Position numbers and translations under genes: made by a program. From Takakia lepidozioides (Eukaryota > Plantae > Bryophyta): a stretch of 64,000 nucleotides of DNA. The stretch spans positions 34,968,001-35,032,000 of the forward strand of contig CM060734.1 of NCBI GenBank assembly GCA_030704615.1, written 5' to 3'. This document shows, in pieces, positions 3,171 through 58,690 of the stretch; the first letter of the stretch is position 1, and the number at the start of each line of letters is the position of its first letter. A model generated the notes under the pieces. The model saw only the letters and a program-made list of their open reading frames with translations. It searched no databases and was not told where the DNA came from.

Positions 3171-3800
3171 TGTCAAGGACGAGAACATGACCGAACACAA
3201 ACAAGATATCAGACTAGAGGTACAAGACTAGACAAGAAGTCAAGGTCGGCATGGTCGTATGCACGATGAGTAAATATGAATCAAGATGATCTTTATAACA
3301 ATGAACTAAAGTACAAGATATTGGAACACGACTTGAATACTAGAATGCTGGAAACTGGACTGAAGTACCAGATACTGGAAACTGGGCTGGAGTACTGGGA
3401 ACTGGAAATAAGAGTAGCTTGAACTGGTGTTGGCGAGACTGAAGAGTGTTCAGTCTCGTCTCCTATATATACTGGCTACTAAGAAGCTTCCTTAAGAAGC
3501 TTCCCCATGGAGGTTTCTTGCTGGAAAAGTTTCCAAGATTAAACAAAGGTTTCTTGATAGAGAAGTTTTCTTAAACAAACGAGGTATCTTGATGGAGAAA
3601 TTCCTCCAAAAGAAGCTTCTTGAGCAGTTCCCCAAGTTATTTTTGGTCATTTGGTAAACTCCCGGTAACTTGGTAAGTAATGGTAAATCATGGTAGATCA
3701 TAGTAAATCATGATAAGTCATGGTAACTTCTGATAACATGATAACTTGGTAATTTTTGGTATTTACTCCTGGTAAGTTCCTTTGGGCGATGTCCGTGACA
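3171..3800 (-). repeat. 3' LTR of the chromovirus
   Basis: Direct repeat of 8957-9578. My manual count is about 21 mismatches in the first ~310 bp, mostly transitions. Adjacent PPT (AGAGGAGGGGGTGA on -) at 3801-3814. Confidence 0.95.
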
Positions 3801-3855
3801 TCACCCCCTCCTCTAGCGCCGAGTTCCTCGAGGAGCGGTAAAATCTTGAACTTGC

Positions 3856-4257
3856 TTAGAGTTGGAGAAAATCGAAAATTCGGCAAATGATGCTTGCCAA
3901 GTATTCGGCTCTTCGTTCTTGACTCAAATGATTTATAGGTCCCTGCAATCATCGATAGTGTCCAACACCTTGAACTTGGGACTACATAGTGATTTGAGCA
4001 TTCTGATTTTCGAAGCTGCCTTCAAACATGATTTCGTTGCCCTCTAGGTCCGAAACCTCAACCTCCAACAGAATTATCAGACTTCGAGTAGGCTCCACTT
4101 GCCGTCGTATGGGGTCCAGACAAGGAAGTACGCGTCGCATTGGTGGCCCATCTTCTCGAGAGCGTCGGCGTGATGTTGAAGGTCGTGAGAGTCGGAACGG
4201 CTGATCTGATAGCTGGGTAAGCGACAACTCCAATGTATCTGGTTCCTGTGACTCCAT
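3856..4257 (-). pseudogene. Putative accessory ORF between pol and the 3' LTR
   Basis: ATG at 4257 (MESQEPDTLEL...) runs 133 codons to TAA 3858-3856 if two stops (TAG, TGA; each one C>T from CAG/CGA) are read through. TATATATA box ~50 nt upstream (~4305-4312). Confidence 0.4.
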
Positions 4258-4429
4258 ACTGCCAATACAAGATGCAAGAATGTTGGAAGTACTGGAAGTG
4301 TAGCTATATATACTGATGTGTGGTGCTCATCCCTCCTTAGCGTGTATCAGGTACATTGAATGTGGAGTCTTCACCTTAAAGCTAACTTGGCTGACATCAT
4401 TGATATGACGTCTTATTGACGTGTAGCTT

Positions 4430-7400: not shown

Positions 7401-7870
7401 GTCGCGTCTTTCTTCGTAGCTCTCATGAAGGCTCTAGCTCCAAGAAACAGGGGTTGAATACCTTTGGTACTTTGCATTTTTGTCTTGCCAAAATTTTTTC
7501 GTGATCGTCAGTCGATGTCAGGATTATGAAGTACAAACCAGGGAAGTCCAAGGATCACATGATTCGTTGGAGACTGGATGACATTGAGAACAATATGTGA
7601 TGCTTGATTTTTAAGCTTCACTTCAAGGGGTCGAGTTTCATGGTCAAAATTTCCTGATACTAACGGTCATCCATCGATGACTTCAACAGGGGCCGAGAAT
7701 TTCTTTCTTACGAGCGTTAAATTGTGTTGCTTTGCAAAGTCTTTGTAAAAAAAAAGAACTGAAGCGCCCGAGTCTAAAAGTGCTTCTACGGAGATATGTC
7801 GATTTTGCATCCTGATCTTTACTGGAACTTTTTTTTTATGAGGAATTTGGGGTGTCCAGCCGCATGGTCC
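4430..7870 (-). pseudogene. Chromovirus pol: protease, RT, RNase H, integrase, chromodomain (frameshifted)
   Basis: ALLDSGAS (PR), RMCVDY..LNKVT and [11 protein letters not shown] (RT), TDHKNL (RH), HHCC plus SMDF/SDRG (IN; consensus TERVN is TARVN), RLGPFKI, EYEVDEVLDS..EYFVHWKCY (chromodomain). Many stops and frameshifts. Confidence 0.95.
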
Positions 7871-7898
7871 CTACTGTGACTGGATATCTTCGTTTTCC
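7848..7898 (-). promoter_or_regulatory. Putative -1 ribosomal frameshift signal at the gag/pol overlap
   Basis: G_GAA_AAC (7898-7892) in the gag frame, 7-nt spacer, then stem TCCAGTCACA/TGCGGCTGGA (7884-7875 with 7864-7855). Gag stop TAG lies in the loop. Confidence 0.55.
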
Positions 7899-8918
7899 GA
7901 CCTCCTCGTATCGAACACTTGAGTTGTGCCCCGAGCTTTGAATCTTCTCTTGTTGGGGCAGTTTAGTGCTATGTGATCATTTTCTCCGCAATAAAGGCAT
8001 AATCCATTTGAGCGTCGTCTTTGTTTTTTCTTGTGGTGTCAATGGCTTGAATCGGACAGCATCAATCTGCATTGGATCATTACCGGATGTCTGATGGATC
8101 GTTGTGTTTGGTGCCGTGGTAGCAGTGACATGGTGCGTCGTCGACCATCCAGATCGCTTCTTTTGACGTCTTTCGAACAAACAATTATCGCATACAATGA
8201 TTTGGGTGATGAATTCGCTCAGTATACTCATGTTTGGGATCGTCAGCAACAAATCTTTTACATCTTCTTTTATGCCACATCGAAATTGATTAATGAGACT
8301 CTTCTCATTCCAGTCGAGGTCGCACGCGAGTTGTCAAAATTCGGTAGCATAAACAGAAGCTGGACGTGCTCCTTGTCGAAGATTTTGCATCTTTGTCTCT
8401 GCAACTCTCTCTCTATCATTCTCTCCAAACGTTGCAGTGAACTCGGACATGAACGCTTCAAAATTGTATAGTAAATGCGAATTTTTCTCTAGTAGCGGTG
8501 CAAACCAAGATATGGCAGTGCCTAATAGAAGGGTGCCCACGAATCTCACTTGAATACCTTCATCAGGATAGCGTTGTTGATATAATCGTAGGAATAATCG
8601 TACTTGTTGAACAAAACCGCGAAATCTTGATTTTGTCCCATCAGATTTTTCGGGCATACTGATCTTTGGTTCCTTAGTAATCTGTTGAAGATTTGGAGGA
8701 ACCGTTGCAGTAAGATTTGTTGTAGTAGAGACTCGTAAGGTTGAAAATCCATTGTTCGACTCCTTCAACTCTGAAATTTGTTGTTGTAAATTGTTGAGAG
8801 CGTTGCCAAGATCTTGAGACCGATCAGCTTGTAGTTGGGCAGTAGATACATGAAGTTCTTGTATCTGGAGCTGAAGACTCTGCAATGTGGCGACCATTTT
8901 CGCAAATGTGTCTTCCAT
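7871..8918 (-). pseudogene. Chromovirus gag (retrotransposon capsid plus CCHC knuckle)
   Basis: MEDTFAKM..EPKISMPEK..FRGF..LRQG..YATEF, PMQID, CLYCGENDHIALNC. Frameshifts present. Confidence 0.92.
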
Positions 8919-8939
8919 CTTAACTAACTAAGGAACAAA

Positions 8940-8956
8940 CTTTAGTCTCGCCAAAC
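8940..8956 (-). promoter_or_regulatory. Primer-binding site complementary to the element's own R region (self-priming type)
   Basis: PBS TTGGCGAGACT(AAAG) pairs with AGTCTCGCCAA at 9226-9216, which lies 31 nt downstream of the LTR TATA start (9257). Confidence 0.8.
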
Positions 8957-9578
8957 TGTCAAGGACGAGAACATGACTGAACATAAACAAGAGATCAGAT
9001 TAGAGGTACAAGACTAGACAAGAAGTCAAGGTCGGCGTGGTCGTATGCAGGATGAGTAAATAGGAATCAAGATGATCTCTATAACAATGAATAAGAGTAC
9101 AAGATATTGAAACACGACTTGAACACTAGAATGCTGGAAACTGGACTGGAGTACCAGATATTGGAAACTGGGTTAGAGTATTGGGAACTGGAAACAAGAG
9201 TAGCTTGAACTGGTGTTGGCGAGACTGAAGAGTGTCCAGTCTCGCCTCCTATATATACTGGCTACTAAGAAACTTCCGTAAGAAGCTTTCCTTATGGAGG
9301 TTTCTTGCCAGAGAAGTTTCCAAGATTAAACAAATGTTTCTTGATGGAGAAGCTTCCTTAAACAAACAAGATATCTTGATGGAGAAGTTTTCTCTAAATG
9401 AAGCTTCCTGAGCAGTTTCCCAAGTTATTCTTGGTAATTTGGTAAACTCCCGGTAACTTGGTAAGTAATGATAAATCATGGTAAATCACGATAAGTCATG
9501 GTAACTTCCAATAGCATGATAACTTGGTTACTTTCGGTATTTACTCTTGGTAAGTTCCTCTGGGCTATGTCCGTGACA
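8957..9578 (-). repeat. 5' LTR of the chromovirus
   Basis: Direct repeat of 3171-3800. TATATATA at 9257-9250 on the minus strand. Confidence 0.95.
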
Positions 9579-10876: not shown

Positions 10877-11659
10877 ATTGATTATCTAAACCCTACATCC
10901 TAAACCTTATATTCTCTTACATATTTGTTCAAATGTATTGTATGATAAAATAATAAAGACGTGAGATGAAATAGTATATGTATGTATATCAAAGACAAAG
11001 AGGAATAGACAAAGCAGAATGAGGCTTGTAGCTATGAGACTAAGCTATGAGACTAGACTGACATAGAACATGCAAATAAGAATACCTAGATTTTGAAGGA
11101 AATGAGAGTTATTCACAAGACTAAACAAAGAGACAAAAAGAAAAAGAAAAAAAAGAAAAAAGAGACAAAAGAACATACAAAACAAAAGTAGGGTTTTAGC
11201 TTCGGAATTAGGACAACAACCAACATTGAGATGACAAGCAATTAGAAGAGAGAAGCAAAACAACACAGAACAATAAGGGACTTCATATGGAGATTAGGTT
11301 ACACATGTATGAACTTCATCCAAATCAAATGTACGGGTGACGATTTGAAGAAAAAGATTGTAATATCAAATGTCAAATTTTAAAAAATATATATGTTTTT
11401 TCTATTATATTTCTATATATTTTAGTCATCATAGTTGATTTTGTATTTTTAAAGCCAACATAAACACAAAATAAAAACTAAACCTAACAAGTACATACTC
11501 TAGATGTATTAAACATAGTTTATGAGGAATATAAGATAATGTTTTAATATTACTAAATGGGTTTCAACTTTTTCATATAGATATTATTATTATTATTATT
11601 ATATTTATGAAACTGAATGATTTATTTATATGTTTTTATTCAACATCAATATATGAATC

Positions 11660-13362
11660 GAGACCTTTGTTTTGTTATGTTTTGTTTTGTTTTGTAGCGT
11701 CGTTGAGATCTCCCAAACCGCGGGGCCCCAGCGCGGGTGCTTGATGCCGTTGGAAAGCCCTCGACGAGGAGGGGTGCACCGGCTTGGTCTCATGATTTTT
11801 GGACAAGCGGTGAGGGGGATGTGGAATTCCAAGTACTTTTGGTCGCTGGAAATTCACAAAAAATAGCAAAAATGGCAAAGTGGGCATTCCTGGGACAATG
11901 GTTGGAGCCTCGACGGGAGAGATATCAAGGGAAAGGTCTCCGGTTCAAATCTGGTCGTAGGCTCTGTGGAAAAAAACTTACTTAGATGACATTGGACACT
12001 TGGGCCAATGGCAAAGGCTACCCTAGAGGTTGCATTTGGGCCTCGACATAGGAAACGCACTTTGATACATAGGGGATTGCACTTGGACTTAGATGACATT
12101 GGACACTTGGGCCAACGGCATAGGCTACCCTAGTCAAGAGATGAAGCAAGACATTTGTTTTGTTTTGTTTTGTAGCGTTAAGATGTCCCGAACCGCAAGG
12201 CCCCAGCGCTGGTGCTTGGTACCGTTGGAAAGCCCTCGACGAGGAGGGGTGCACCGGCTTGGTCTCATGATTTTTGGACATGCGGTGTGGGAGATACGGA
12301 ATTCCAAGTACTTTTGGTCCCGGGAAATTCACAAAAAATAGCAAAAATGGCAAAGTGGGCATTCCTGGGACAATGGTTGGAGCCTCGACGGGAGAGATAT
12401 CAAGGGAAAGGTCTCCGGTTCAAATCTGGTCGTAGGCTTTGTGGAAAAAAACTTACTTAGATGACATTGGACACTTGGGCCAACGGCAAATGCTACCCTA
12501 GAGGTTGCATTTGGGCCTCGACATAGAAAATGCACGTTGATACATAGGGGATTGCACTTGGACTTAGATGACACTGGACACTTGGGCCAACGGCATAGGC
12601 TACCCTAGAGGTTGCATTTGGGCCTCGACATAGGAGACGCACTTGCATACATAGGGGATTGTACTTGGGCTTAGATGACACTTGACACTTGGGCCAACGG
12701 CATGGGCTACCCTAGTCAATATATGAAGCGAGACGTTTGTTTTGTTGTGTTTTGTTTTATGTGTTTTGTCACGTTGAGATATCCCAAACCGCAAGGCCCC
12801 AGCCTTGGTGCTTGGTACCGTTGGAAAGCCCTCGGTGAGGAGGGGTGCACGGGCTTGGTCTCATGATTTTTGGACTGCGGTGTGGGAGATGTCGAATATC
12901 AAGTACTTTTGGTCGCTGGAAATTCGCAAAAAATATGAAAGTGGGCTTTCCTGGCACAATGATCGGAGCCTCGACGAGAGAGATATCAAGGAAAAAGTCT
13001 TCGATTCAAATCTGGTCGTAGTAGGCTCTATGGAAGAAAAATGATGAGATACGTATGGCTAAAACGAATTTCAAGTACTTTTGGTCACTGGACAATGATT
13101 GGAGCCTCCACAAGAGAGATATCAAAGGAAAGGTTTCCGGTTCAAATCTGGTCGTAGGCTCTGTGGAAAAAAAATGATTAGATATGACTTGCTTCATATA
13201 TTGATGCATTTGGACTTAGATGACACTTGACACTTGGGCCAACGGCACAGGCTACCCTAGTCAGTATATGAAGCGAGACGTTTGTTTTGTTTTATTTTGT
13301 TTTGTCACGTTGAGATGTCCCGAACCGCAAGGCTCCAACCCTGGTGCTTGGTACCGTTGGGA
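11660..13362. repeat. Complex tandem repeat (~475-bp unit with ~107-bp subrepeat and tRNA-like module)
   Basis: TTGGAAAGCCCTCG at ~11751, ~12225, ~12821 and partially at ~13357. TTAGATGACA(T/C)T(G/T)GACACTTGGGCCAA occurs six times (~11982, 12089, 12457, 12564, 12671, 13216). Confidence 0.9.
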
Positions 13363-15489
13363 AGGAGAAATAAAAGAGAGACCACTGGACCACCTGAGGC
13401 TCCTCATGATATACTTAGTGCTTCAGAAAATAAATATGGATACTCTAATGTAGGGTGCACTACAATCTCAGATCCTGCTTTCCACCACTTTGAAGATGAG
13501 ATTTGTTCTTGTGGTGATAGGATGTTTTCTTGGAAAGATTCTAGTGTCTGGTGACAGTGGATGGAAATCAGAGTGCTGTCCTAATTTTGGGTTTGGGTGG
13601 TGGAGCTTCTCCAAAGCTTGAAGATGGAAGTGAATACGAATTTTAATGAGCTTGATGAGAGGGGCAGCCCTGTGCACGAGTTTGTTCAGCATCTTAAATT
13701 TAGACATGTTTGTTTGTTTCTCGTATCTAACAAGGAGCCGTGCCTCGTCACTTTTTTAATTTTTCGACCTTTTTTCTCATGTTGGAAAGCCATAAAAGCA
13801 ACATGTTCCTCTCCCATTCCTACACTCAACCATGTGGAATAATAATACAATGAATATGGAATATTCTATATAGAATATTCTTATTCCATCCTTTGATATT
13901 TTGACTATGGACCCTAAGATTAGACGAATCACAATTTTTTTTGTTTTTTTTGGGTACCCTTATTTAAGTGTTGTGCATATAAAATTGTTCCTATGCATAT
14001 CTAAAATTTGCATGCACGCATACATTCCTCCATATGCATGCATTTGTGTGTGCATATAGTATAGGCTACCTCTTCACCATAAAACTTAAAAATAACAATA
14101 GTCAACTCATGGGAGTATATTAATTTAAACATTCATTCAAAACCTTAAAGTACGAGTTTTCCATATCAGATATACAAATGATAATTTTCTGTAGAAACAA
14201 GCAACATAGAAAAGAATTCAGTATAAATAAACTATACTTAAGAAATTCACACACTTATAGCGTTTGGTGATGGTCAAACTTCAAAGTAATACAATAACAC
14301 TCTCACATGTAGGAAGATATCGCGGCTTGGTCTACGGGTACGTTGCCTCTCATCGCCTCTTAGTAATCATTCGCTATATTTATTTATTTCTACTTAAAAG
14401 CCTCGAAGAGTTTTTTTTTTTTTTTGGTTGGGTAGGTCTTAGAATCAAAGGCAAAATTGGCTCAAATAACAAAAGCTCTCAGACTTTTTAGAGATACTAG
14501 GTAAACATCTAAATTTTAGAGTTAATATTTTAAAAAATCTTTATGACTCTTGCTCCCAATGAGTAAAAAATTAGTCATACAATTATTTGATGATGGTGTA
14601 GACACATTTTCTTGGGCATGTAATGGTTTTGTAGGCCATTTATAGCATCCAAGTACACTCCAAGCTATAAAGGCAGTCATGACACATGTATGCGGTATAA
14701 CTCTGTCCAATGAGTTTCATAGAACAGAGATCAAATGCAAGGATAACTATGCATTATACAACCCAACACATTGGAACATGTTGAATGTGTGGCGACTATC
14801 TAATGAGACTCAATTAAAAAAGACACATACATCAATATTTGATGAATCTACAATAGCCGACATGTTTTATGCGATTTCTCATATAAGACGTAGTTGTATT
14901 TTTGTGTAAGATGCAAATGGATTGATGAAACGGGTAATAAAATAACAATAATTATTTCAGCATTGATCCACATGTTATCGAAAGAGCATAATGTTGGAGT
15001 ACAACTAGAATGACGAGACACCTCTACATATATATTGGGATGAAGGGAAATGATTTTCTCAATATTGCCACTTTTAAGTTTTTGGGTTATCTACGGCTAT
15101 GAAGATACATTCATCATCATTTATCATTTGTAAACGTGTTCATTCACTAAGGATATTCCGTATCAATGATTTTTCACTAATGAATGCATTTTGGATCGTA
15201 TGTATCTTGAGCTTTCAGATTATGATTTATAAGTCAAATAAGACCTCGGCCGCACTGGTGGCTAACTAGCCACTACTAGCTGTGGCTGACTAAACCATGA
15301 CTACTTAGCCGTGGCTAGAGGGCAACTGCACAGAGTGGCTAAAGTAAGCAGGTTAGGGAAAGTTAAGTCCCTGCTGTCCCGCAAACGTCGTCCTCGGTCC
15401 CGTGCGCATGCCCAGATTGGACACCGCAGAGGGGCTTGTCTTGCACAACAATTTAAAAAATCAAGAAAAAGGGGGGAGGGATGATGATT

Positions 15490-38805: not shown

Positions 38806-40493
38806 TGTTGGTTTTCGGCCATATTTGTTTTTTCCTGACTGCCCTGGAAATTTGAAAAGGACTTGGCTTATACCTACTTGTACAAATGAGCCTGATAACT
38901 TAGGGGCCTGATAAGTTGTGAGAGCTGTTTCCATATCTTTAAGAAAAAAGAAAAAAGAACACTTGGTTGTGGGATCTCACAATAGAATTATGTTGCACCG
39001 TGCAACTTTGGTGGGGTTCGCATTCACCTTTTCAAACCTTTCCAAGTATGATGGGGACCAGTGTTTGTTTGCCTGCCGAATAATCGCTAGATTTCAACCT
39101 GAGATATGTGTCAGCTACCTGTACAAAAGAATTATTTGATAGAGCCCACCCACCGAAAGGGGCCGTACCCGCAAGGGAAGAGGCTCTTATTTACGCTAGC
39201 TTCGGTTGGCATCATATATATACATACAAACGACGAAAGATTCGCCAAAAAGTGCCAGCAGTTGAGTATCAGAAGCCTGATTTTACCATCATGGACCCGT
39301 TAAAACATGCCACCTAGTTTTTCTTGCCACATAGGCGCTGGATACAATTCACATGTGGCCCCTCTGGCAATTTTGGAAAATGAAAAACAAACAGTGATGG
39401 GGAAGTATTTCAATGTATCAGCGCAGTTGGGCAGGAGACCCAGCTGTTAGAGAATGATAAGCAGCATCATCATGACATCTTTGTTTGCGATACCACATCG
39501 GTAGGTGTGTAAGTTGGCACATTCGAAACATGGGGGGCTACGCATTCGGAGACCATGAGAATCTCATGGACCATGCTATCAAGGCCTCCAAGGGATACTC
39601 CCACTAAGACCCTCCAACTCAATTTCTGTAAGGCTTTCGTTATGAAAGACCCAATTGACTGTACAAGAGTTACCTTGGTACATACTTGGAATGTCCTTTG
39701 AAATGAAAATCGAAAATGCTTGGATCTCCAATCCAAGGAGACGAGGGCAGGGAGGCCACGAAGGTCATGTGGCATAGAAAACAAGTGATACGCAGCACCA
39801 GTCAGTTCACTTGCTGCAGTGCACTGCGGTGGGCCTGCACACAATTCGTACCATTCCTGCCAAACTCAGTACAACAACACTCTGCATGGGGCCCACTTCT
39901 CAGCTTGCTGTTTTTTTCAGTGAACCACAGCTTTCCCGTGGGGGATCGATCCTCTCATGGTCATAGGCCTTAGACATGGTTATTTTTTCCATGTCCTCTT
40001 AGTAAATTTGGAAGGGCCTCGGACCTCGGATCCCTTTTTTGTGTTGTATTTGTATTTTAAAGTAAGTAAGTGTGATGACAGAGTGATTGTGTGTGCTAGC
40101 GACCGCCGTAGCTTTTGAGAGTGGTTCCACGTCACGGCAAGTCAGCCCCCGTGGATGGTCTGACGAGCGTTGAATCGCGCCAGACGAGGACCCCACGGCG
40201 GGCGCATGGACAGACATAACCGCCATATATTCGAGCTGCGCAAGGAGGTTTGTGCAACGGAGATTGCCTCGCTCCTCTCTGCTCCTGAGGCTGAGCTCTC
40301 TGCCGGAACCCACTTAGAAATTCTGAGAAGCAATTCATAGTCGCCCCTCAATCTCCTTTCATCTAAACCGGCATCTGTCTCTGTTTGGGAATAGCATTCC
40401 TGTGTAGCTTTTCTTTTCAAGTGGAACGCGGTGCGCGTATCGGATTGTTGAGGAAAGCCGGTGTTTTCAATCGGGTGGTACGTTGGGTGCAAG

Positions 40494-43202
<2,709 letters not shown>

Positions 43203-44904: not shown

Positions 44905-46200
44905 ACTCCCACTCGAGGTGAAGTGCTGTGATCTTCAATGCGAGCTTCAGTAAGACCCAGCATCCCCTTTAGTTGTTCAAAGCGAGGCTTCGGCATTGGC
45001 TTGGTCAGTAAATCAGCAAGATTTTCTCTGAGGCGATGAACTCCAGTCGAATTGTACCGCGAACATGCTCATCTCTTATCTTGTGATACTGTACATCGAT
45101 ATGCAGCAATTCGGGTCAGATGGGATCGCAAGAGGGGTTGCATTATCAAAACTGTCCTTGGCCAGAAATCTATCACATATCTGGACTGCTCAATCTGCAG
45201 GGTTCTTTTGGCTCTGTCTCGTGTAATGCGCCGTAAGCCTACGTAAAACTCGGGATTGCAACTAGTTAGTTTGAAGGCTTTGCCCATGTAGCCTATCATT
45301 GTGGTGACTCCGGTGGTTGACACACTACAGATAATTCCGTCATCTACAAAAATGATAAGGATGAGTCTGGGATTGGCTGTGCTAAGATATACACAAGGAT
45401 CGGCTGTAGTGGGAACTAGGCTATATTCGGTCAGGATATCGTTAAAACGCTGATTCCAGACTCTACTTGACTGTTTCAGACCATACAAAGCTTTGTTCAA
45501 CTTACAGACTTTAATACAAGTGGAAATTGATCTTCGAAGCCGAGGGGGGGTGCCATGAAGATGTCTTTGGTTATCTCCCCGTGCAATAAGGCTATGGTTA
45601 CATCGAATTGGGTCATCTCAAGATCCTCCGTTGCTGCAATCGACAAAATTGTGCGGATAGAGTTGAATTTCACTACAGGGCTGAATCGTCTCTTCATAGT
45701 CAATTCCTTCCTGCTGAGTAAATCCCTTTGCCACTAGTCTTGCTTTGTAGTTCGATGTTACCTTGCAGATTGTGTTTTAACTTGAATATCCATTTGTTCC
45801 TGATGAGATTTCTTCCATTAGGCAGGTTACAAACAGACCATGTGTTGTTTTCAAGCAAGGCATCATACTCTGCCTGCATTGCATCTCTCCAGCTAGCTGA
45901 TTGCGGTGACTACAAGGTGTCATGCATAGTAAGGGGTTCTTGCGATACTGTGCTAGGGTTGGCTTATGCTACGTAAGCCTAGTCACCGTACCGGTCGACT
46001 GGCTTCCGCTCTCTGCCGTTGTATGGAGGTACCGTTACGAATTCTCCCACTGTAGGAATGGATTCGGCTGCTACTGCTTGTCCGACTCCCACTATTTGTA
46101 TAGCCGATACTGCAACTCCAGTTGACTCTATTTCGGCTTCCTGAGCTGGCACTGTAAGCGGTTGGGATTCTGTGCACGTCGGCTGCTCTGGCCAACATGC
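44905..46200 (-). mobile_element. Ty1/copia pol remnant (RT and end of RNase H)
   Basis: AMQAEYDAL..NTW, KGFTQQEGIDYEETFSPVV, QFDV, KALYGLKQSSRVW, IFVDDGII, LADLLTKP. PPT-like GAGTGGGAG next to TGTAA at ~44904. Confidence 0.9.
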
Positions 46201-47365: not shown

Positions 47366-50261
47366 CTTGACGACATTCATTTCTCCATTCGCTGTTATGG
47401 CGTGAGGAGTCTGTAAGTAGAAGGGTTTATTGCCAAAAGAAGACACTGATGTACAGATGGACTATACCGGGCAACCAAATTTGGGGGTGGGCATAGTTTG
47501 TACGCATTTACTCTCATTTCAACACTGGCCGCAAATCGTTTTCAGACATAAACTCGAGCAGGAATAACCACGAACACCATCTGTGCGTTTTTCTTAGCTA
47601 GCTTTCATGCCCGAAGACATATCCATATCTACCAAGTTACCTCGGGAACAAAAGAGCCCAGTCGTGGTTTTGCGGCCCAGTCCTGATTGAGGCCGAGATC
47701 GATGGTTGTGTGACCTGCTTTCTTTTCGCTAGTGATTGTGACAGGGCAACTTTGGATTGTAGCCCAATGCATTGAAGTACATATACATAAATGTTAGTGT
47801 GATCCGAGCTTGTGACATCCACACAGTGTCGTCGCACACAGGATGCGTAAACCACACTAATCCCTAAAGGCCGAGTACCGAGATCCTCATCAGTCCCGAG
47901 GAAGAATCGGAATGAATATGCAAAGCTCCATGTCCTCCACAATTGCCCAGCCAGAGTGGACGTCACGTAATCGTCGTCCTCCAATGCCACACCATCTCTA
48001 AGTCATGCGAACCCAGTAGACTTCTGTCGTTGATGTTCGCGGAGCCTGTCAACACATCTCGATCGTCACCTATCGTGTAGCTTTATCTTTGAGGCCCGAG
48101 TGTATTATATAGGCGTTGCAGCAAGGAGTGTTGTCCCCGACAGATTGCTCGACACCGGTTGTGATCGTATTATCACCATTTAGACCTGAAATGAAGAAGT
48201 GGTTTTCAATGTAGACAAAAGACTGGGCTTATTCTATGAGCGAACAGTATGCTGCATGGATTCTATTCTCCTCTTTCCTTCCGACCATTGCCCAAACTTC
48301 GTATCACTTGGCAACGGCATGGTACACGGGGTCCAACATCACCAATTGTCTCCAACTTTGAAACCTGCCCAGGTTCACACCTCCCACCACTCCCTTTCCT
48401 TGCCTCATGCGTCTCCATTCTCTTTACTTAATTGCCCCTTAAGCCTCACTGCTGCCCGCTGGTGAGTACATTTATCCATGTCTGGATCCTCCACGAAGCT
48501 CTGCAAGCAGCCTTGTCAAAGAAGCCTAGGCTAGTTATGACTTTTTTTATGGAGCGTTTGCGGGCGTTTGTTTTGCTTTGCTTTGTGTCTCCCTTCTTGC
48601 TTGTTTGCTCACAAGTGTAGGGATGGTAGTGCCCCCTGCCGCTCTCCCTAGTGTGCAGGCGGAGGCCATACCCAAGGCCATGTCTTCTCTTTGTGATGAA
48701 TGGACGGGAAGCCCTACGGTATGCAACAGACCAAAGGGGTAGGCTGTGTGTTTGTGTCTGGTTTGAAAGCATCATAAAACAGGGAAAGATTTGGGAGGGG
48801 AATGGGAGGAGAGCATCGTGGTGGCCACTACCATTGTAGAATGCTAACTTGTATAGTAGGAATTTATAAATATGATTGCTGGCCTTTCAGTTTTTCTATC
48901 AAAAGCTTCTGAACCATGGGAGAAATTTGAAACAAGAAATTTCCCCACCCACAGGATATTAGAGCTTTCAGCATTTTCTCAAGCCTGTCCAATGTAGTGA
49001 AAACAATGGCTTTCACTTAAGACTATGGAGGAGTTCCTCTCAATGAGAAGACTACCCGTTGCATTGCAACAGAAAACTTACGACATTGTTACACCAGACC
49101 CAGAAAACGGCATCCACGATCCCATTGGGGGGTGGGGTTTACAGTACAGATGTAGGCAGCACACTATCAATGTGAACTTCAGTACAGTTCATATGGTGGT
49201 TCAATCTCACCATACACCCAGGGTTCCCTCAGGGATGTGAGTTTCTGCTAGTGTCCTTTTCCTTGTAAGAGAATGCAACAGGTACCAAAAATCTTTGCAT
49301 GGTTGCTAAGGCCAGAGTCGTCAGAAACAAAAAGGTGGAGAACCCAACTAAGGTGTCCAAGGAGTTGGAGTGGGCGAGGTGTATTGCAGTGGAGGTGGAA
49401 CGAAGGTAAGAAAAAACTTTTTGTTGATTCCAGAAAATGTGTTATGATTCAAGGCTACAGAGTCATGTATCTGTCAAATTGGTGTTTTATGCACATTTTG
49501 GGGTTGACTGTAGGGTCCACGCTTAGACTTTGTGGGGCCAACGCCAGGGAGCACAGCTGTGGTAGCACTGAGTCCTGATAAGTATCTACTGGTGGCCAAC
49601 GCCGGAGACTCACTTTGTATCATGCCACCATGGCAATGTATAGTATGTAGCTTCTTCTGCGTATGTGTGCTAGGAGCAGGGAAGAGAGAAGAGAGAAGAG
49701 TGGCATGATAGATTAATAAAAGGTTGACGGCACAGAAATTGGACAAATTTTGCTTCTGTGGTCACTGATCCAGCGTTTTGTAGCTTTGTTGAAATCAACA
49801 GTCTTGTCTATACAAAAAAAGGATTCTAATGGCTGGTGGATTCATCCATGGTCAGCGCTTAAATGGTAGCCTGAATCTAACTAGAGCCATAGGTGGTTTG
49901 TGATACAGTGACTTCCTAGGGGAAGAAACTGTGTGTGGGTTTGTTGGATGTTTCAAGTTTTCTTCAAAGTATGTTTGTGCCATTGTGTGTAACTCCAATT
50001 TTACGTCTGTCCATATGCAGGGAGATACTGCAGTCAGACCTTGACCATGACCATTGCTTTTGAAAGAAGACCCAGAAATGGAGTCAACAAGAACTCTGTT
50101 GGCACTTGTGGGAATGTGATGACATTATGTAAGGTGGTAAAACTAAAAGAGACACTTCAAATTTTGAACCAACAAGGCATTTAGCAGATGCCAATATTTA
50201 ACATCTGTCTCTTGTAGGAGTGTATCAAAATAAAAGACCTAGAAACAGGAAAGCAGGTACC

Positions 50262-50562
50262 CACCACGGTCCCATTGGACCGTGATGAGTCCCAAGACTC
50301 CCCACGACTCCCACCACAAGGTCTTCGCCCCCATGGTGAGTCCTATGCTACCCCCACTAAGTCCTACTAAGCTACCACCACCCTTCATGGAACCACCCCC
50401 ACCGCAACCCGGTGTGTGGGGCTCCACCTAGTGAGCGCCTCCGCTTCCTTGGGCACTCAAGGGTGCTTCAGCCCCCCGCATCTATTGTTGCCACTGCCCC
50501 CACCACAGGGGCAGCCCCTCTCGTGTCCCGACCCCCTGCCCTCAAGGCAAAAGACCGCAACA
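50262..50562 (+). repeat. Partial copy (right half) of the LTR found at 54569-55292
   Basis: Matches ~54986-55292 and ends CCGCAACA (vs CCGCGACA). Confidence 0.9.
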
Positions 50563-52108
50563 TACAGGATCTGGAGGTAGAAAGAGACATTTTTTTGTGA
50601 GGAATTTGGGATGTCTAGCCGCATGGTCCCTACTGTGAGGGAATTTCTTCATTTTCCGACCTCCTCGTATCGAACACTTGAGTTGTGCCCCGAGCTTTGA
50701 ATCTTATCTTGTTGGGGCAGTTTAATGCTATGTGATCATCTTCTCCGCAATAAAGACATAAACCCTAAAGCGCCATTTTTGTTTTTCTTGTGGCGTCAAT
50801 GGCTTGAATCAGACAGCATCAATCTGCAGATGATCATTACCGGATGTCTGATGGATCGTTGTGTTTGGTGTCGTAGTAGCAGCGGCATGGTGCGTCGTCG
50901 ACCATCCAGATCGCTTCTCTTGACGTCTTTCGAACAAACGATTATCGCATGCAATGACTTAGGTGATGAATTCGCTCAGTGTATTCACGTTTGGCATTGT
51001 CAGCAACAAATTTTTTATATCATCTTTTAGGCCACATCGAAACTGACTAATGAGGCTCTTCTCATTCTAGTCGAGGTCGCACGCAAGTTGTCAAAATTCG
51101 GCAGCATAAACGGAAGCTGGACGTGTTCCTAATCGAAGATTTCGCATCTTTGTCTCTGCAACTCTCTCTCTATCATTCTCTCCAAACGTTGCAGTGAACT
51201 CGGACATGAACGCTTTAAAATTGTATAGTAAATGCGAATTTTTCTCTAATAGCGGTGCAAACCAAGATATGACAGTGTCTGATAGAATGGTGCCCACGAA
51301 TCCCACTTGAATACCTTCATCAGGGTAGCGTTGTGGATGTACATGTAGTCGTAGGAATAATCGTACTTGTTGAACAAAACCGCGAAATCTGGATCTCGTC
51401 CCATTAAATTTCTCGGGCATGCTGACCTTTGGTTTCTTTGTAATCTGTTGAAGATTTGGATGAACCGTTGCAGTATGAGTTGTTATAGTAAGGACTCGTA
51501 AGGTTGCAGATCTATTGTTCGACTCCTTCAACTCTGAAATTTGTTGTTGCAAATTGTTGAGAGCGTTGCCAAGATCTTGAGACTGATCAGCTTGGAGTTG
51601 GGCAGTAGAGGTACGAAGTTCTTGCATCTGGAGCTGAAGACTCTGCAATGTGACGACCATTTTCGCAAATGTGCCTTCCATCTTAATTAACTAAGGAACA
51701 AACTTTAGTCTCGCCAAACTGTCAAGGACGAGAACATGACTGAACACAAACAAGAGATCAGACTAGAGGTACAAAACTAGACAAGAAGTCAAGGTCAGCA
51801 TGGCCGAATGCATGATGAGTAAATCTTTATAACAATGAACAAGAGTACAAGACATTGGAATGCTACTCGAATAATGGAATTCTAGAAACTGGACGGAGTA
51901 CCACATACTAGAAACTGGGCTAGAGTACTGGGAACTGGACTAGAATACTGGGAACAGTAGCTTGAACTGGTGTTGGCGAGACTGAAGAGTGTCCAGTCTC
52001 ACCTCTTATATATACTGGCTACTAGGAGGTTCCCTAAGAGGCTTCCCCAAATGAGGTTTCTTGATGGAGAAGTTTCCTTAAACAAAGGAGGTATCTTGAT
52101 GGAGAAGT
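50563..52108 (-). mobile_element. Truncated second copy of the Tcn1-like chromovirus (part of 5' LTR, PBS, gag, start of pol)
   Basis: Collinear with ~7830-9390. LTR edge TGTCAAGGAC at 51720. Same PBS. Gag MEGTFAKM at 51681. Confidence 0.93.
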
Positions 52109-52559
52109 CACTAGAAGCATGCGTGTCTTTTCCGAATCGACTGGGTGTCTGCCAACCACTCCGAGAACCACTTGGCAGTAAGCGAGACTACTGGAGAGTC
52201 GAAACGGACAATGTGGGGCCACGGGGGCATTTCAAACGGCAGGCAGAAGTGGGGTCAACAACTCCAGAGTCGTAGAAAAAATCCGGGCTATTTAATTAAT
52301 TACGTAAATACATAAAATTTGAAAAAGCGGAAATTACAAGTGGTTCTAATTACTGCACATGCGACTAGAAATTTTCATTCATAATTCGATTAATGAAATA
52401 AATAAATAAATTTATTAAAGTGAATATGTAGTCGACTCAACGACTCCATGAACCACTGCGCATTGATTGCACCCGTGATTCGCGGCCACATTTGCTGGTG
52501 TGTTTCACAAAAACATGCAAACAAAATCTGGCCTTGGGGGCTTGCATTACTGCCTCCAC

Positions 52560-52790
52560 CTGGAAGTGACATGGAAGGTCCATGGTGACATCAAGAAAGC
52601 TGGAATTGTAGGGTTTATCAATCTGAACACTGCCCTGGTGGACATGTATGCCGAATGCGGGAGCATTGAAGATGCAAAGGTAGTGTTCGACTGTGGCTCA
52701 ACGAGATGTGGTGTCGTGGAATACGATGATCACATTGGATGTATGCATGACTTGTGCAGAAGCAGTGATAGCTGAAGGAGCAGGATAGAA
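52560..52790 (+). pseudogene. PLS-class PPR fragment (inverted relative to the adjacent PPR)
   Basis: KVHGDIKKAG..NTALVDMYAECGSIEDAKVVFD..RDVVSWNTMI. Confidence 0.8.
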
Positions 52791-52829
52791 TGTGGGTCCA
52801 TATTCATCCAAGAGGGTCGGAATTCAAGC

Positions 52830-53430
52830 TCCAGATTACCTATGGATGAGGCACATGCATTGAGAACACAAATAAATGTGACTTTGTTGGGGCTCACTCC
52901 TTCGCACATCATTTGCTCAAAAATCTCCAAAGCCTCCCTACCACACCCATGATACATGTTGAGCATATCCTGCAATCATAGCATTCCATGAGAACATATC
53001 TTTTTCAGTCATCTTGTGGAACACTTGATGTGCATCCTTCATACTCCCACATTTGGCATACATGTTAACAAGCGCATTATCCAGATTAATACATAGTCCA
53101 ATTCTAGCTTTGATGATCTCAGCATGGATCTCTTTGCCATTTTCCAAAGCTCCAAGGCTGGCACAAGCCTTGAGAATGCAGATGAATGTAACCCTGTTGC
53201 GTGTCACCCCTTCCTGTATCATTTGTTCATAGATTTCAAAAGCTTCCTTACCATGCCCATGTTGGGCGTATCCTGATATCATCATAGTCCAAGTAAACAC
53301 ATCTCGTTCAGGCATTAGGTCAAACACTTGACGTGCATCCACCACGCTCCCACACTTGGCATGCATGTTGATAAGCGTGTTCAAAAGAAAGATGCCTGGC
53401 TTGAATCCACTTTGGATTATATGGGCAGTG
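52830..53430 (-). pseudogene. PLS-class PPR protein fragment (RNA-editing-factor type repeats)
   Basis: NTLINMHAKCGSVVDARQVFDLMPERDVFTWTMMISGYAQHGHGKEA..VTFICILKACAS, with a second P-L-S triplet. Frameshift near 52950. No start codon and no E/DYW domain. Confidence 0.92.
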
Positions 53431-53431
53431 C

Positions 53432-53965
53432 ATGGATGCCATGGACTCAAGGGTGAAGACAGCCACAGCTGCACCATGGCAAGCGACAACTACAAGGTTG
53501 CAGGAGTTTCCAGCTAGACCAGCCATTGAGCATAGTATGGTAACTCCTGGGGTAGTCCTGATGGACAATCAGGATGGTGTGTTTCAGTTGGGTGGCCCAA
53601 CCGGGAGGAGGTATAGACCACTACAGGTCTTGTTGGACTCGAGAGCACAGCCATTGATGTTGGGGAGAGCAGCAATTGTAGGCTTGGGCCTTACAGAGGC
53701 GGATTTGGAGCCTTACCCTTTCCAAATTCAAACATCTTTGGGTGGTTCAAAGAAGGCGCGAGGGATTACACGCCATGAGCTCTTCATTCGATTGCAGCCG
53801 GATCACTTTATGGACGGCTCAGTCATGAGAGCTAAAACCATTGTTACGGACGCAATGTCCTATGATGTGCTTGTTGGTGGGGCGGTGTTATACCCCATGG
53901 GATTCATTTTGGACTTTTGGGAGAAAAACGACATCCTACAGGCCGGAATGGTAGTTAGGAGATAG
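53432..53965 (+). pseudogene. Retropepsin-like aspartic protease of a Ty3/gypsy pol
   Basis: VLLDSRA (DSGA with G>R; Asp codon at 53636), flap-like QTSLGG, and YDVLVGGAVL. Confidence 0.8.
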
Positions 53966-54239
53966 TGAGCTCTTGGAGGGCAATAGCCATGCAGATGATA
54001 GGCCATCACCTGATGAGGACAAACAATTGGCATACAAGGCTGATTTGCTTCCTCATGTGCCTGTACATATTCCACTGTGGGGTACGGTTGGGAATTTGCA
54101 TCGAGTAGCAGACAAGTGTGTGCACCAAGCATGGCAGGAGGCTTTTCCATTGGTGAGTGAGGGGAGTTCAGCGGCGTCACTTGGACCTCCTGAGTTAGTT
54201 CCTTTGGACACAGTGCCCATTACCTGGCAACCACCTGAC

Positions 54240-55709
54240 TCAGGGATTTGTTTGCTAGACTTGTTTGGAGGCATGAGCACTGGGCTTGCAGGAGTATTGC
54301 AAGCAGGGATTAAAGTACGCAAGTACTTGTATGTGGAGAAGGATGAGATAACTCGGCGTATTTCTATGCGGCATATCGCCTTGCTCACACACCGATATCC
54401 TGAGTTGTTGTCTCTCTCAGCAATAAAAGGGTATCAAAAGGCCTTGCCAGTAGACATTACCTTGTTGGGGGCGGATGATTTGGACCGGCATGGTGCCATT
54501 GACTTGGCGATAGCCTGACGGCCTTGCCAAGGACACTCTCCCGCAGGTCATAGGAATGGTTTGCATGATGTCGCGCACCTCACTTCGGTAAGCTCCCCCT
54601 TCAAGTCATAGTTACTCGCTTTGATGCGCGCGCCTGACTCCCAACCTGGCCGCCCGGGCCAACTTGGAGCTTCGGCTGCTCACCGGGACATAACGGTCCC
54701 CCTTCGCTTCCCTCTAAACCCTCTACCTATTTGGGACTAGGAGAATTCCCTTTGGTAGATGGCAGTCCGGAACAGCTCCCCACTCTTTGGTCGCTTTCCG
54801 GCTCGCGCGCTTACTCACTAGTTTTTGGTCACCAACGGGCTTGCACCGTTCTCGGGGTTACTACTCCCTATATATACTTCTGTAGTTGTCCGCGGGGGTT
54901 TCATAACCAGCCATGCCATTTTATGGCGAACCACCACGAAAACCCTCGACTCCCGGTGATGAGTCGCGGTGAGTCTTGGACCACTCACCACGGCCCCTAT
55001 GGACCGTGATGAGTCCCAAGACTCCCCACGACTCCCACCACGAGGTCTCCGCCCCCATGGTGAGTCCTATGCCACCCCCACTAAGTCCTGCTAAGCTACC
55101 ACCACCCCTTGAGCCACCCCCACCGCAACCCGGTGTGCGGGGCTCCACCTAGTGAGCGCCTCCGCTTCCCTGAGTGCCTTGGGCACTCAAGGGTGCTTCA
55201 GCCCCCCATACCTATCGCTGCCGCTGCCCCCACCACAGGGGCAGCCCCTCATGTGTCCCGACCCCCTGCCCTCAAGGCAAAGGGCCGCGACACATGATGC
55301 ACGACCGCATTTGTTTTGGGAGATGTTGCGAGTGTTGCGGGACTTGCCGACGAGGCAAGTGCAACCTCTACGCTATATCTTGGAGAATGTTCCTCTTATG
55401 GGGGATTCTCGGGCCAGGGTTATGGCTAGTATGCATCAGGTGCGGTCTTGGATTGGATCGGCGATGCTATTGGATGCAGCAGCGGTGGGATCCCACGCGC
55501 ATCGACCTCGATTGTGGTGGACCAATCTTGCACCACCAGAGCTGCTCAAGAGAGCATACGATTCCATTCAACGGCCACCCAATCTCACGGTTGAAAGCAT
55601 TTTGGACCAATGGAGGCAACCACAGAGAGTGCGACATGATGATTGTCCGCCTCTAGCAGTGGTCCATCGAGTGGGGCAGCCACGTGCGGCCTTGCCTACG
55701 CTCATGAGC
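54240..55709 (+). pseudogene. C5 cytosine DNA methyltransferase domain within retrotransposon pol, interrupted by a solo LTR
   Basis: Motif I LLDLFGGMSTG (54252-54284), II YVEKD, III DI, IV IDLAIA*RPCQGHS (Cys 54525), V GLHD|AR..LFWE, VI YILENV (55383), VIII SHAHRPRLWWTNL (~55491-55529). Confidence 0.9.
54569..55292. mobile_element. Solo LTR (724 bp) inserted in the DNMT domain
   Basis: Termini TGTCGCG...CGCGACA. 5-bp TSD CATGA at 54564-54568 and 55293-55297. Internal TATATATA near 54868. Removing it restores the frame GLHDARPHLFWEM. Confidence 0.92.
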
Positions 55710-56597
55710 AGGGAACAGTGGCCTGAGCAGGAACAGAATAGGTAGTCGAGCCTCCCGAGGCCTCTCTCGCCGCCATAGTTCTAATACTAGAGATGGAAAG
55801 TGGGTGAGGTCTGTATGGTGGAGTCCTTTAGCAAAGGTGCCATTGGCTTGACTTATATAGCGTGATAGAGTGGTTTCTCCTCTTTTCACCATTTCCGTAT
55901 CATTGTGGCGTGGTTTTCTAGGACTATATGCTAGGAAGTGTGGTTGGATAACGATGTATGTTGTGGCACGATGCTTAGGTGCACGACACGTTGCTCATAA
56001 CCACCACACTATCCTTTGCTTTCTGCAAACCTTGGAAATAACTAATATTTTATGTGCATTCCCAGTACATGTTTTATGTGTTTTATGGGCCGCAGCAGAC
56101 TTGCTTGCCTGGTAGACCCAGCAACAGACCTGCTTGCCCGGCAGACCCAATAGTAGATTGAGCCGCAGCGGACCCTCCGACGGGTAAGGGCGCTCCCAAC
56201 CTTCGCAACCCTCGCTGCTGCATGTGGGCCCCGCCGTAGGCACACGCATGCGCATTGAAGACGCTATTATCTTTCAATGAGAAACGATTGAAAGTACATG
56301 AAATTTAATGATGTGAGTTTTGTGACCTATAGCAACCCTCCCATCTATTTGGTTTGAATTTTTGCAAAAGATGTTGCTGATGATGTAGGCTGTAATACTC
56401 ATCTACAAATGATTTAGGTGGCCGACAACTTTGCAACCGCCTAATTCAAGCTGTTGCATTTTTTTCATTAATGTTTTTTTGCTGCAACCATGACCGAGGA
56501 AATGGATTGATGAATTTTCCAGCAACCATGACCATTCCAGCATTTTCTGGCGGTCATATCAATTTTAATTTAAAAACTGACATTTGATTATCAAATT

Positions 56598-57440
56598 ATG
56601 GTGGTCGCATGCCCGGACCACGTTTGGCACATAGAACGCACAAGTGCAGGGTCTCGTGTGAAATGTACAGCGATCAGGGCAACAAATTTCGAGAAGTGTA
56701 CTTCATCTATATCCAGAGATGGTGCCCGGACTCCTACTCCGACTTTCACGGGTTTGATGCGTCCATACGGTCAACCAGAAGCCAAGAACCACAAGTTCTG
56801 GTTCTGCACAGATGATTGTGGCAGATATGTGCATGGAACCGTGCGTCCTTCCGTGGTGATGAAACCAGCTCCTCCAACCGTTTGGCCCGTCAAGGTGGGA
56901 ACACATCTCACAAGTCAGGAGATTGCAATGCTGGAGGAGGCAGGCTTTTCCCTTGCGAGACAACCCCAACTGCATGCATGTGCTACTACTTCTACGTCCT
57001 CTCGGGTACCTCCGGCAAATCCTCACTTGTGGCCAACCTAACGAGATGGAAAGCTCGTTCGGCGTTTCCCTCCAACCGCTGAACACTTTGGCAAAGTGGA
57101 GTCCGCAAGAATGCTCCAAGCTCGTGTTGCAAGCACCACGGAAGTGCCCGATCCCGGATATGGTCGGGTGTATACAATGATCACTTCGACATCTGCTGTT
57201 CATGACAGGGCCTACGACATCACGGTTTCCAATTTCCCCAATTGCACATGTCCTGATTTTGTGAATATGCTATCAACCAGTTTGGGCAAGAGAGGTAAAT
57301 TCATACCCTGCAAACATTTGTATTTCATATTTTTGAAGAGGATGGTTTGCGATCCCAAACGTGACAACTTCGTTCACCAAGCCACTCTAAGTTTCAACGA
57401 GGTCGATACTCTATTGCAGCGCGATACAACACATAGGTAG
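56598..57440 (+). pseudogene. SWIM zinc-finger protein ORF with one in-frame stop
   Basis: ORFs 56598-57041 and 57096-57440 are in the same frame. YDITVSNFPNCTCPDF..PCKHLYFI fits the SWIM CxC..CxH pattern. Confidence 0.75.
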
Positions 57441-58088
57441 CATCAACTATGCAATGTGGTATGTGGACGACCATGCTATGAAATGTCTAATTTGCAACAT
57501 TGTCATGGAAATTCAATTCAAATCAATTCGTTTGCAACATCGTCGGCGGTGCAATGATATGGTGTCTCTTATCCCTCCATTATGCTTCTAACTATACCGA
57601 GTGAGCTCTGAGTGGCAACTTTTATAAGCACATGCATCATTGCACCGTTCGAAGTCTACATGTCTTCCTGTCGCTATGCACTGCAATCATCTTTTGAAGA
57701 TGATCCTAACTCTCATTGTTATTTGGGGAGGGACTCTGGTCTTCTCGTGGCAGCCTCTATGGTACACACTTTGTAAGGATATTTTCTCGTCCTCGTAATT
57801 GTAACAGTGAAAGAAATATTTGTAATTGCACAATGTTGGATGGTACAATTGTAGGCCTCATGGCAGTCTTGATTGTATTCAGCCAAGGATTCCCTGCATT
57901 AATCCCACGGTCATAGGACCATCCTCGGTTATAGGCGACGCATGTTAGTGCTGACGTGGCTAATGACAGTGCAGTGCCACGTCATCATTTGCCGCCACAT
58001 CAGCCTGCTGACATGACGCTCACGCCAGGTCAACGTGGGTGCAGGCTCACGCCACGTCAGCTAGCGTGAGCGTACGCTCGCGCCATTG

Positions 58089-58690
58089 CGTCGTTGTGCA
58101 TGGATTACGACTCAATCCATCTGCATCCCGATTGACAATACCGGCTCGATGCACCACCTGGAAGTCGCACTCTTGAAGTATAAGTGCCCACCGTGCAAGC
58201 TTCCCTGTAAGCTTGTCTGACTCCATCAACCACTTCAATGGTTGGTGATCCGTGACAAGGGTGAAGAGATTGCCATAGAGGTAGTATCTGCAATGTGCCA
58301 CTGCCCATACCGCAGCTAGATACTCCCATTCATAGGAACTATACTTCGTCTCGGCATCATTGTTCGAGCGGCTAGCATATGCCACTACGAACTCTCTTCC
58401 CTCATCATCCACCTGTGTGAGCACTGCTCCAATCCCCAAACATACTCCAATCCGTATATAGCTGGAAAGGCCGCCCCCGAATAAGCCGCCTCAGAATAGG
58501 TGCAGAAGTCAATCGAGCCTTGAGTTCCTCCTGCTCCTCCTCCCACTGCCACTCCTGACCCACCTTGGTCAACTTGGTAAGAACCCCTTGCCCGCTCTCG
58601 CTCATCCGCATTGGGCTTCACCAATTGCTGTAGCACACTGTCCCAAATCAACCCAAGACCATTGTCTCGGAAAGCATGAGAGGAAGCATG
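58089..58690 (-). pseudogene. DNMT C-terminal segment fused to Ty3/gypsy RT-connection/RNase H
   Basis: SSHAFRDNGLGLIWD..KPNADERERARG (58690-58583; motif IX-like), then LTKLTK..WQW..LTSAPIL..YTDWS..GIGAVLTQ..AYASR..VTDHQPLKWL..LARWAL..ADGLSR. Confidence 0.85.

Follow-up and report, generated by a model that had tools for sequence, protein, structure and literature searches.

A DNMT3-bearing Ty3/gypsy retrotransposon family in land plants and its decayed copy in Takakia lepidozioides

Introduction

Retrotransposons that encode their own cytosine-5 DNA methyltransferase (DNMT) have been described from algae, and in the literature searched transposon-borne cytosine methyltransferases were previously in print for algae only. 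KnitGypsy-Dnmt3 of Klebsormidium nitens has DIRS-like repeats together with Gypsy domains (PMC5890265, legend of Fig. 4c), and the DNMT elements of Symbiodinium are regarded as independent captures (PMC5890265). The DNMT of the EpiLTR elements is sister to DNMT4, is accompanied by DAM and a chromodomain, and is distinct from the streptophyte Gypsy-DNMT3 (bioRxiv 10.64898/2026.05.21.726589). In this study we analysed a 64,000-nucleotide stretch of the bryophyte Takakia lepidozioides (assembly GCA_030704615.1, contig CM060734.1, positions 34,968,001 to 35,032,000; the window), in which a retropepsin-type protease (PR), a DNMT3-type domain and an RNase H (RH) of the Ty3/gypsy kind lie in pieces between positions 53435 and 58690.

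Marchantia and Sphagnum are not named in the main text or text supplements of PMC5890265, and streptophytes are spoken of generally in the accessible parts of PMC12344493 and bioRxiv 10.64898/2026.05.21.726589. No report of DNMT-bearing retrotransposons in land plants was found in the literature searched, although the tree figures of the latter two papers and the supplements of the preprint might contain land-plant sequences. This kind of element was published in 2018 from Klebsormidium; what is new is a land-plant branch with the DNMT in the Gag open reading frame (ORF). We consider it probable that these elements form a land-plant Ty3/gypsy family in which a DNMT3-type enzyme closes the Gag-PR frame, would be made at Gag-like levels, is likely packed into the particle and is predicted to methylate the element's cDNA. 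The window copy itself is a fossil, and the interest rests with the family.

The family in land plants

A search with the DNMT piece of the window gave 36 protein matches among 960 candidates. The 20 named matches were all from bryophytes (Marchantia 12, Calypogeia 4, Sphagnum 3, Riccia 1). A wider profile search, which also covered the integrase (IN) and PHD columns, gave 85 matches among 7995 scored proteins, adding Closterium (18 rows), Klebsormidium nitens, Cymbomonas and Sphagnum balticum; because those columns were included, RH-DNMT-IN proteins are favoured in its ranking, and the numbers of matches should not be read as family sizes. No vascular-plant name occurred among the 36 and 85 matches, a weak negative, since the searches were word-seeded and names are sparse. 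A metagenome scan found 207 relatives, of which 80 loci were kept for analysis (below, P numbers denote protein relatives and L numbers metagenome loci). Scans of IMG/VR returned no relative, and among GTDB genomes one of 57 pattern matches was a relative, with 26% identity.

In 49 of the 50 loci of at least 5 kb, the DNMT adjoins retroelement domains in the expected order; the sole exception (L047) ends in the DNMT and has no further domain match. Whole relatives have the order Gag-CCHC-PR-DNMT3-RT-RH-IN-PHD in one frame, where RT is the reverse transcriptase. Pfam recognised zf-CCHC, DNA_methylase, RVT_1, RT_RNaseH and integrase (rve) in relatives, and PHD in L050 and L066. The long frame of L030 spans 2163 codons and is broken by two stops, of which one is the conserved stop described below. 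In Marchantia, a cluster of 18 members includes several Gag-PR-DNMT ORFs of 1278-1281 aa. The trees were built from hand-selected rows, with no host DNMT3 or DRM among them. In the DNMT tree (55 rows) the window falls in an 11-row clade, supported at 100/100, with proteins of Marchantia, Calypogeia and Sphagnum jensenii. The same tree separates the 50 element rows, without exception, from 5 phage rows at 100/100. The RNase H tree (28 rows) places the window with Marchantia P0003, L030, L031 and L016 at 99/99, and the two trees agree on the placement of the window copy, beside elements of Marchantia and peat-moss-like copies.

The K. nitens protein KFL_009030040 (P0296), which we take to be a copy of KnitGypsy-Dnmt3, has PR-DNMT-RT-RH-IN in one ORF, and the DNMT piece at 55298-55709 of the window is 38% identical to it (E 2e-24). 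By sequence comparison, the remnant belongs to the land-plant branch of KnitGypsy-Dnmt3-like elements. The initial annotation had proposed both a DNMT-carrying family in land plants and kinship with the Klebsormidium element, and both proposals were borne out. It had also named a one-off adjacency as the competing explanation, namely a processed host DNMT3 or DRM lying beside unrelated retrotransposon pieces. The heavily rearranged state of the window copy, with pieces on two strands, would suit such an origin. Against it stand the linkage of DNMT to PR, RT and RH in the same order in the long loci, in Klebsormidium and in Closterium, the concordance of the DNMT and RNase H trees, the dozens of distinct contigs over the DNMT in sequencing run X1 (as many as 81 at a single site), and a motif order that is not DRM-permuted; we regard a one-off rearrangement as extremely improbable. 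A host DNMT3 or DRM gene was also considered and rejected: the locus is collinear with intronless element ORFs, has PR and RH flanks, and has motif I first.

A second land-plant family (L060, L066-L080) has about 40% DNMT identity, with named matches in Calypogeia fissa and Sphagnum balticum. It has one ORF, motif IV in the form ECQ, and the same split repeats at its ends. An alternative architecture, RT-RH-DNMT3-IN-PHD, was found in 116 of the best 150 profile matches (P0098, P0284, P0320 and most of P0097-P0246). Its named members are from Scenedesmus sp. PABB004 and Cymbomonas, and its rows cluster in both trees with mixed support. This architecture was not found in the literature examined; a PHD-bearing Gypsy is known from Chlamydomonas (PMC9940879), and the accessible part of PMC6317226 mentions neither a methyltransferase nor PHD.

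The Takakia copy

The window copy is a dead, rearranged remnant of one Ty3/gypsy element. The initial annotation had read the protease, the DNMT motifs and the RNase H as parts of a single element, and six-frame translation and homologues placed the named motifs where it had put them. The retropepsin-type protease lies at 53435-53947 (+), 49-51% identical to Marchantia P0008 and P0003 (E 5e-45 and 2e-42), with the motifs LLDSRAQ at 53630-53650 (DSG in the family) and YDVLVG at 53861-53878. A linker and DNMT3-type motifs I-IV follow at 53967-54568 (+; 53% to P0008 residues 786-988, E 5e-54), with motif I LFGGMSTG at 54261-54284, YVEKD at 54330-54344, and a TGA stop at 54516-54518 just before motif IV PCQ at 54522-54530. 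Motifs VI and VIII and the target-recognition region are at 55298-55709 (+; 63% to P0008 984-1125, E 7e-47), where motif VI ENV occupies 55383-55391 and motif VIII SHAHRPRLWWTNL 55491-55529. The end of the target-recognition region and motif IX NADERERA (58612-58589) are inverted at 58582-58690 (-; 67-72% to L030 1228-1263 and P0010). The RT connection, starting with LTKLTK at 58581-58564, and the RNase H of the same element are at 58086-58581 (-; 76-80% to P0003 and L030).

The Pfam check suggested by the initial annotation had a divided outcome. RT_RNaseH was recognised in the RNase H (E 3.7e-31); one DNMT piece matched DNA_methylase at E 0.074, the other piece had no match, and the protease went unrecognised. 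The DNMT and protease were called because of their homologues (DNMT E 1e-46 to 1e-54) and because the window protease is 44% identical to that of P0273, which Pfam calls Asp_protease_2. A sequence search of the PDB with the motif I-III piece gave nothing relevant.

The initial annotation had also called the copy dead, citing the stop before PCQ, an inserted solo long terminal repeat (LTR), and deletion of RT and motif X; all of these were found, together with frameshifts and an inversion. A frameshift near 53925 puts the protease and the DNMT in different frames, and a second one lies near 58440, in the connection/RNase H part. The solo LTR, of another, ordinary LTR family, occupies 54569-55292 (724 bp, TG..CA) inside the DNMT and is flanked by the 5-bp target-site duplication (TSD) CATGA at 54564-54568 and 55293-55297. 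It probably lies on the minus strand, judging from a purine-rich loose end behind 55294. The joint 54563->55293 that bridges it was found in contigs of three of the four sequencing runs (X1, X5, X9), and a second partial copy of its family is at 50259-50562.

Marchantia polymorpha proteins align in order along the region, first with the plus-strand and then with the minus-strand pieces. On P0008 the plus-strand piece stops at residue 1125 and the minus-strand piece picks up within about 3 codons; because of this collinearity the locus is read as one inverted element and not as two neighbours, and the inversion of 55710-58690 that had been suspected was thereby upheld. An identical 201-nt contig across the right breakpoint was present in two of the four runs (one sample, possibly the source of the assembly). 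Among the 15 of 42 joints listed, none was the opposite-strand joint 55709/58690. The inverted segment also holds foreign DNA (55710-58085), made up of a short repeat at about 55743-55990 and a high-copy SWIM-finger element at about 56510-58080.

Relative to the long frame of L030, the window copy has nothing between residue 1263 and about 1731-1750; this deletion of some 470 codons (about 1.4 kb) takes motif X, the linker, the conserved-stop site and the RT polymerase domain. Other copies (runs X1, X5, X9, X10) continue past 58582 into RT connection letters. No match to Gag was found anywhere in the window, and the 5' part and left end of the element are missing; the integrase, the PHD and both ends of the DNMT element are absent from the window copy, and the foreign DNA at 55710-58085 had no tblastx match to 86 loci. 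In run X8, which is guessed to be RNA, family contigs cover PR, DNMT and RH, and run X10 has no family contigs over 55300-55662; neither observation was used as evidence.

The methyltransferase domain

The DNMT of the window is intronless and non-permuted, with motif I first and motifs I-IX in canonical order. Among solved sequences, those closest to the intact relative P0004 are DNMT3A (E 6e-12), then DNMT3B, DRM and HhaI, and the best fold matches of its AlphaFold model (pLDDT 70) are DNMT3A/B. The top cluster in the ESM Atlas is mostly Streptophyta; the next two are phage DNMTs with equal scores. The catalytic Cys, ENV and the motif VIII/X residues are retained in most relatives. Some observations weigh against the proposed reading of the domain: phage DNMTs also match, at up to 31%, and the trees lack host DNMT3; motifs IV and VI vary, with ECQ for PCQ in many relatives and EHV for ENV in P0296.

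In comparisons of the window with four relatives, the rate of nonsynonymous substitution (dN) was 0.30-0.32 for the DNMT, with saturated synonymous sites, 0.36-0.44 for the protease and 0.13-0.19 for the RNase H. The ratio to the synonymous rate (dN/dS), which the initial annotation had suggested computing for the DNMT, was about 0.15 for L030 against three others. Between subfamilies the DNMT has a dN of about 0.3 and a dS of 2 or saturated; among close decayed copies within the subfamily dN/dS is 0.5-1.0. These rates indicate purifying selection on the DNMT between subfamilies; it was kept at least as well as the protease during divergence. CpG/CHG ratios gave nothing decisive.

A conserved stop between DNMT and RT

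The initial annotation had placed the DNMT inside pol, in one ORF with RT. This has to be revised for the relatives: in 44 of 45 aligned copies an in-frame stop about 100 codons past motif X (31 TAG, 13 TAA; the remaining copy has TAC), mostly as TAG-CAA, parts Gag-PR-DNMT from RT-RH-IN-PHD. In peat-moss-like copies the stop is followed by CAA CCC ATG, and RT lies in frame 18 codons on. The next-highest stop column of the 1321 has stops in 15 of 39 copies and is read as decay because CAG is in the majority. Full-length proteins in the window's clade often measure 1278-1329 aa and end about 100 residues past motif X, and all seven selected named proteins of Marchantia, Calypogeia and Sphagnum end 98-100 residues past it. 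In the wider clade, 24 of 24 selected proteins end 22-202 residues past motif X, some of these ends possibly being contig ends or chance stops.

The divergent L030 has another linker protein, yet TAG CAA CCA GTG is kept. Its junction fits type I stop-codon readthrough because TAG CAA CCA agrees with the tobamovirus motif UAG-CAR-YYA (PMC3542737). On balance, we slightly favour readthrough of UAG-CAA-CC(C/A) as the route to RT-RH-IN. Translation could instead use a spliced RNA or restart at the nearby ATG, an explanation to which we give less credence but which has several features of the junction behind it. In peat-moss-like copies the junction is a pyrimidine run followed by TAG, resembling a splice acceptor; 43 of 44 copies have an ATG 3 codons past the stop; and the linker is skipped in five NCBI gene models (P0003, P0010, P0021, P0030, P0035), which cross into RT in a splice-like manner. 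However, both ORFs are in exact frame, and L030, with GTG in the place of ATG and without the pyrimidine run, keeps TAG CAA CCA despite its different linker.

Besides the ATG and the gene models, other points count against the family-level proposal. The 45 copies are non-independent (42 pattern-matched rows reduce to 35) and all belong to one subfamily, and the peat-moss-like copies have CAA CCC, not CAR YYA. As the window copy has kept neither the junction nor either end, its stop and split repeats have to be deduced from relatives with 60-67% protein identity; the window's own subfamily quite probably has both. A shared stop was found neither in the second land-plant family (at least 12 loci) nor in Klebsormidium or Closterium. 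The stop is therefore unnecessary for the role of the DNMT, since all of these keep one ORF. Folds behind the stop gave nothing decisive.

Element ends

The initial annotation had spoken of an LTR family. Paired LTRs are absent from the relatives, and no TGG-type primer site was seen by eye after repeat A in 4 loci. Whole relatives (9.1-9.7 kb) end instead in split direct repeats, with A at the left, PPT-B-gc-A-B at the right (PPT, polypurine tract) and TG..CA termini; the corresponding ends of the window copy are lost. The split repeats occur in relatives of both land-plant families. Among nine relatives with both ends, seven have exact 4-bp TSDs, L031 has one mismatch and L069 has none. A family lacking paired LTRs will escape LTR finders.

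The internal B|A junction forms a near-perfect palindrome in both families (12 loci), composed of the right end, GC and the left end (for example L031:14729-14744, L054:10344-10359 and L073:8987-9002). L038 and L046 show variation at the A|B junction, and short A..B forms with intact TSD are seen in L037 and L046. The A-internal-PPT-B-gc-A-B layout would result from cutting end-joined or circular cDNA at the internal CA-GC-TG palindrome. The mirror form, in which B precedes the left A, was found in none of the 80 loci, which argues against the plainest two-repeat circle model.

Proposed role of the enzyme

We propose that Gag-PR-DNMT would be the abundant product, with RT-RH-IN made less often, most likely via readthrough. 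From the conserved stop, the enzyme's dosage would be that of Gag, which hints at its site of action. The DNMT would likely travel with Gag into the particle. Following the general processing of Ty3 polyproteins, the protease probably frees the DNMT. Within the particle, the DNMT is predicted to act on the element's cDNA, a step for and against which the chances appear about even. A new copy would then arrive pre-methylated, either hidden from host sensing or with its own expression dampened. The same hypothesis of cDNA self-methylation was raised by de Mendoza et al. for their elements (PMC5890265). Weighing against it, the KnitGypsy-Dnmt3 domain produced no methylation in yeast, a result its authors call inconclusive (PMC5890265).

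That inactivity would also agree with the DNMT having been kept for another job, such as non-catalytic binding of DNA or chromatin, or methylation of host or competitor DNA after release. The ECQ and EHV variants point the same way, as does the occurrence of the DNMT in two positions, before RT or in the RNase H/integrase interval, beside a PHD-bearing integrase. The retention of the catalytic residues in most relatives and the de novo CG methylation by the related SymbioDIRS-Dnmt3 in yeast (PMC5890265) make another job rather unlikely in our judgement. If methylation of the element's own cDNA is correct, particles would be loaded with active methyltransferase, which could be tested in Marchantia with its many long Gag-PR-DNMT ORFs. 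Transposons are de-repressed in Marchantia Mpmet mutants (bioRxiv 10.1101/363937). The presence of the family in this genetic model, where its members are annotated as hypothetical genes, makes the role of the enzyme for the element testable; bryophyte DNMT3 counts and methylome models possibly include element-derived enzymes.

A broader history can be put forward tentatively, and we think it rather unlikely to hold in full: a green-plant-wide group of DNMT3-bearing Ty3 elements (Scenedesmus, Cymbomonas, Klebsormidium, Closterium, liverworts, mosses) may carry the DNMT in two positions, with the land-plant members combining a DDE integrase with split repeats made by cutting the internal palindrome, and in one clade the DNMT may have been shifted to the Gag ORF, closed by a readthrough stop, with new copies being pre-methylated.

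Neighbouring features of the window

Fragments of a host PPR gene (52500-53425, -; Pfam PPR E 1e-29) abut the truncated left end and lie outside the element. The SWIM element within the inverted segment (56510-58080) is of high copy number and has a broken SWIM-finger ORF at 56574-57437 (+; Pfam SWIM E 0.0016), with no obvious terminal inverted repeats. Another Ty3/gypsy family is represented at 3171-9578 (-), where the paired LTRs are about 93% alike and Gag matches DUF4939, and by a second partial copy at 50590-52107 (-). The window further contains a multi-exon class II DAHP synthase gene with a plastid-type N-terminus (40452-42717; best match 72% to Capsicum, with two proteins returned), an array of highly identical 475-596-bp repeats at 11646-13411, and a Ty1/copia RT fragment at 45069-45617 (Pfam RVT_2). 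Taken by themselves, the PPR fragments and the DAHP synthase, which is of chloroplast type, point to a land plant, and the named land-plant relatives of the element, all of them bryophytes, make a bryophyte the likely host.

Comparison with known systems

The relatives share with canonical LTR Ty3/gypsy elements a DDE integrase (Pfam rve), TG..CA ends and a short TSD, but differ from them in their ends, where two matching LTRs and a tRNA primer site would be expected. Membership in DIRS or Ngaro was rejected: Pfam found an integrase and no tyrosine recombinase in seven ORFs of L030, L050 and L066, and TSDs are present. SymbioDIRS-Dnmt3 and SymbioLINE-Dnmt of Symbiodinium are likewise retrotransposon-borne C5 methyltransferases; they belong to the DIRS and LINE classes, whereas the land-plant element has a DDE integrase and TSDs. 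The EpiLTRs of Cymbomonas and Euglena are, as here, Ty3-like with a DNMT (bioRxiv 10.64898/2026.05.21.726589). As for the tobamovirus type I readthrough, the in-frame UAG with CAA and CCA is shared by L030, while the CCC of the other copies departs from the consensus at its last base.

The closest described system is KnitGypsy-Dnmt3. Like the land-plant family, it has an intronless, non-permuted DNMT3-type domain in a Ty3/gypsy element under purifying selection, and the land-plant elements are further tied to it because a DIRS-like repeat layout is common to it and to the land-plant relatives. It differs in having an algal and not a land-plant host, with a DNMT 38% identical, and in the position of the enzyme: in KnitGypsy-Dnmt3 the DNMT shares its ORF with RT, whereas in the window's clade it closes the Gag-PR ORF at the stop.

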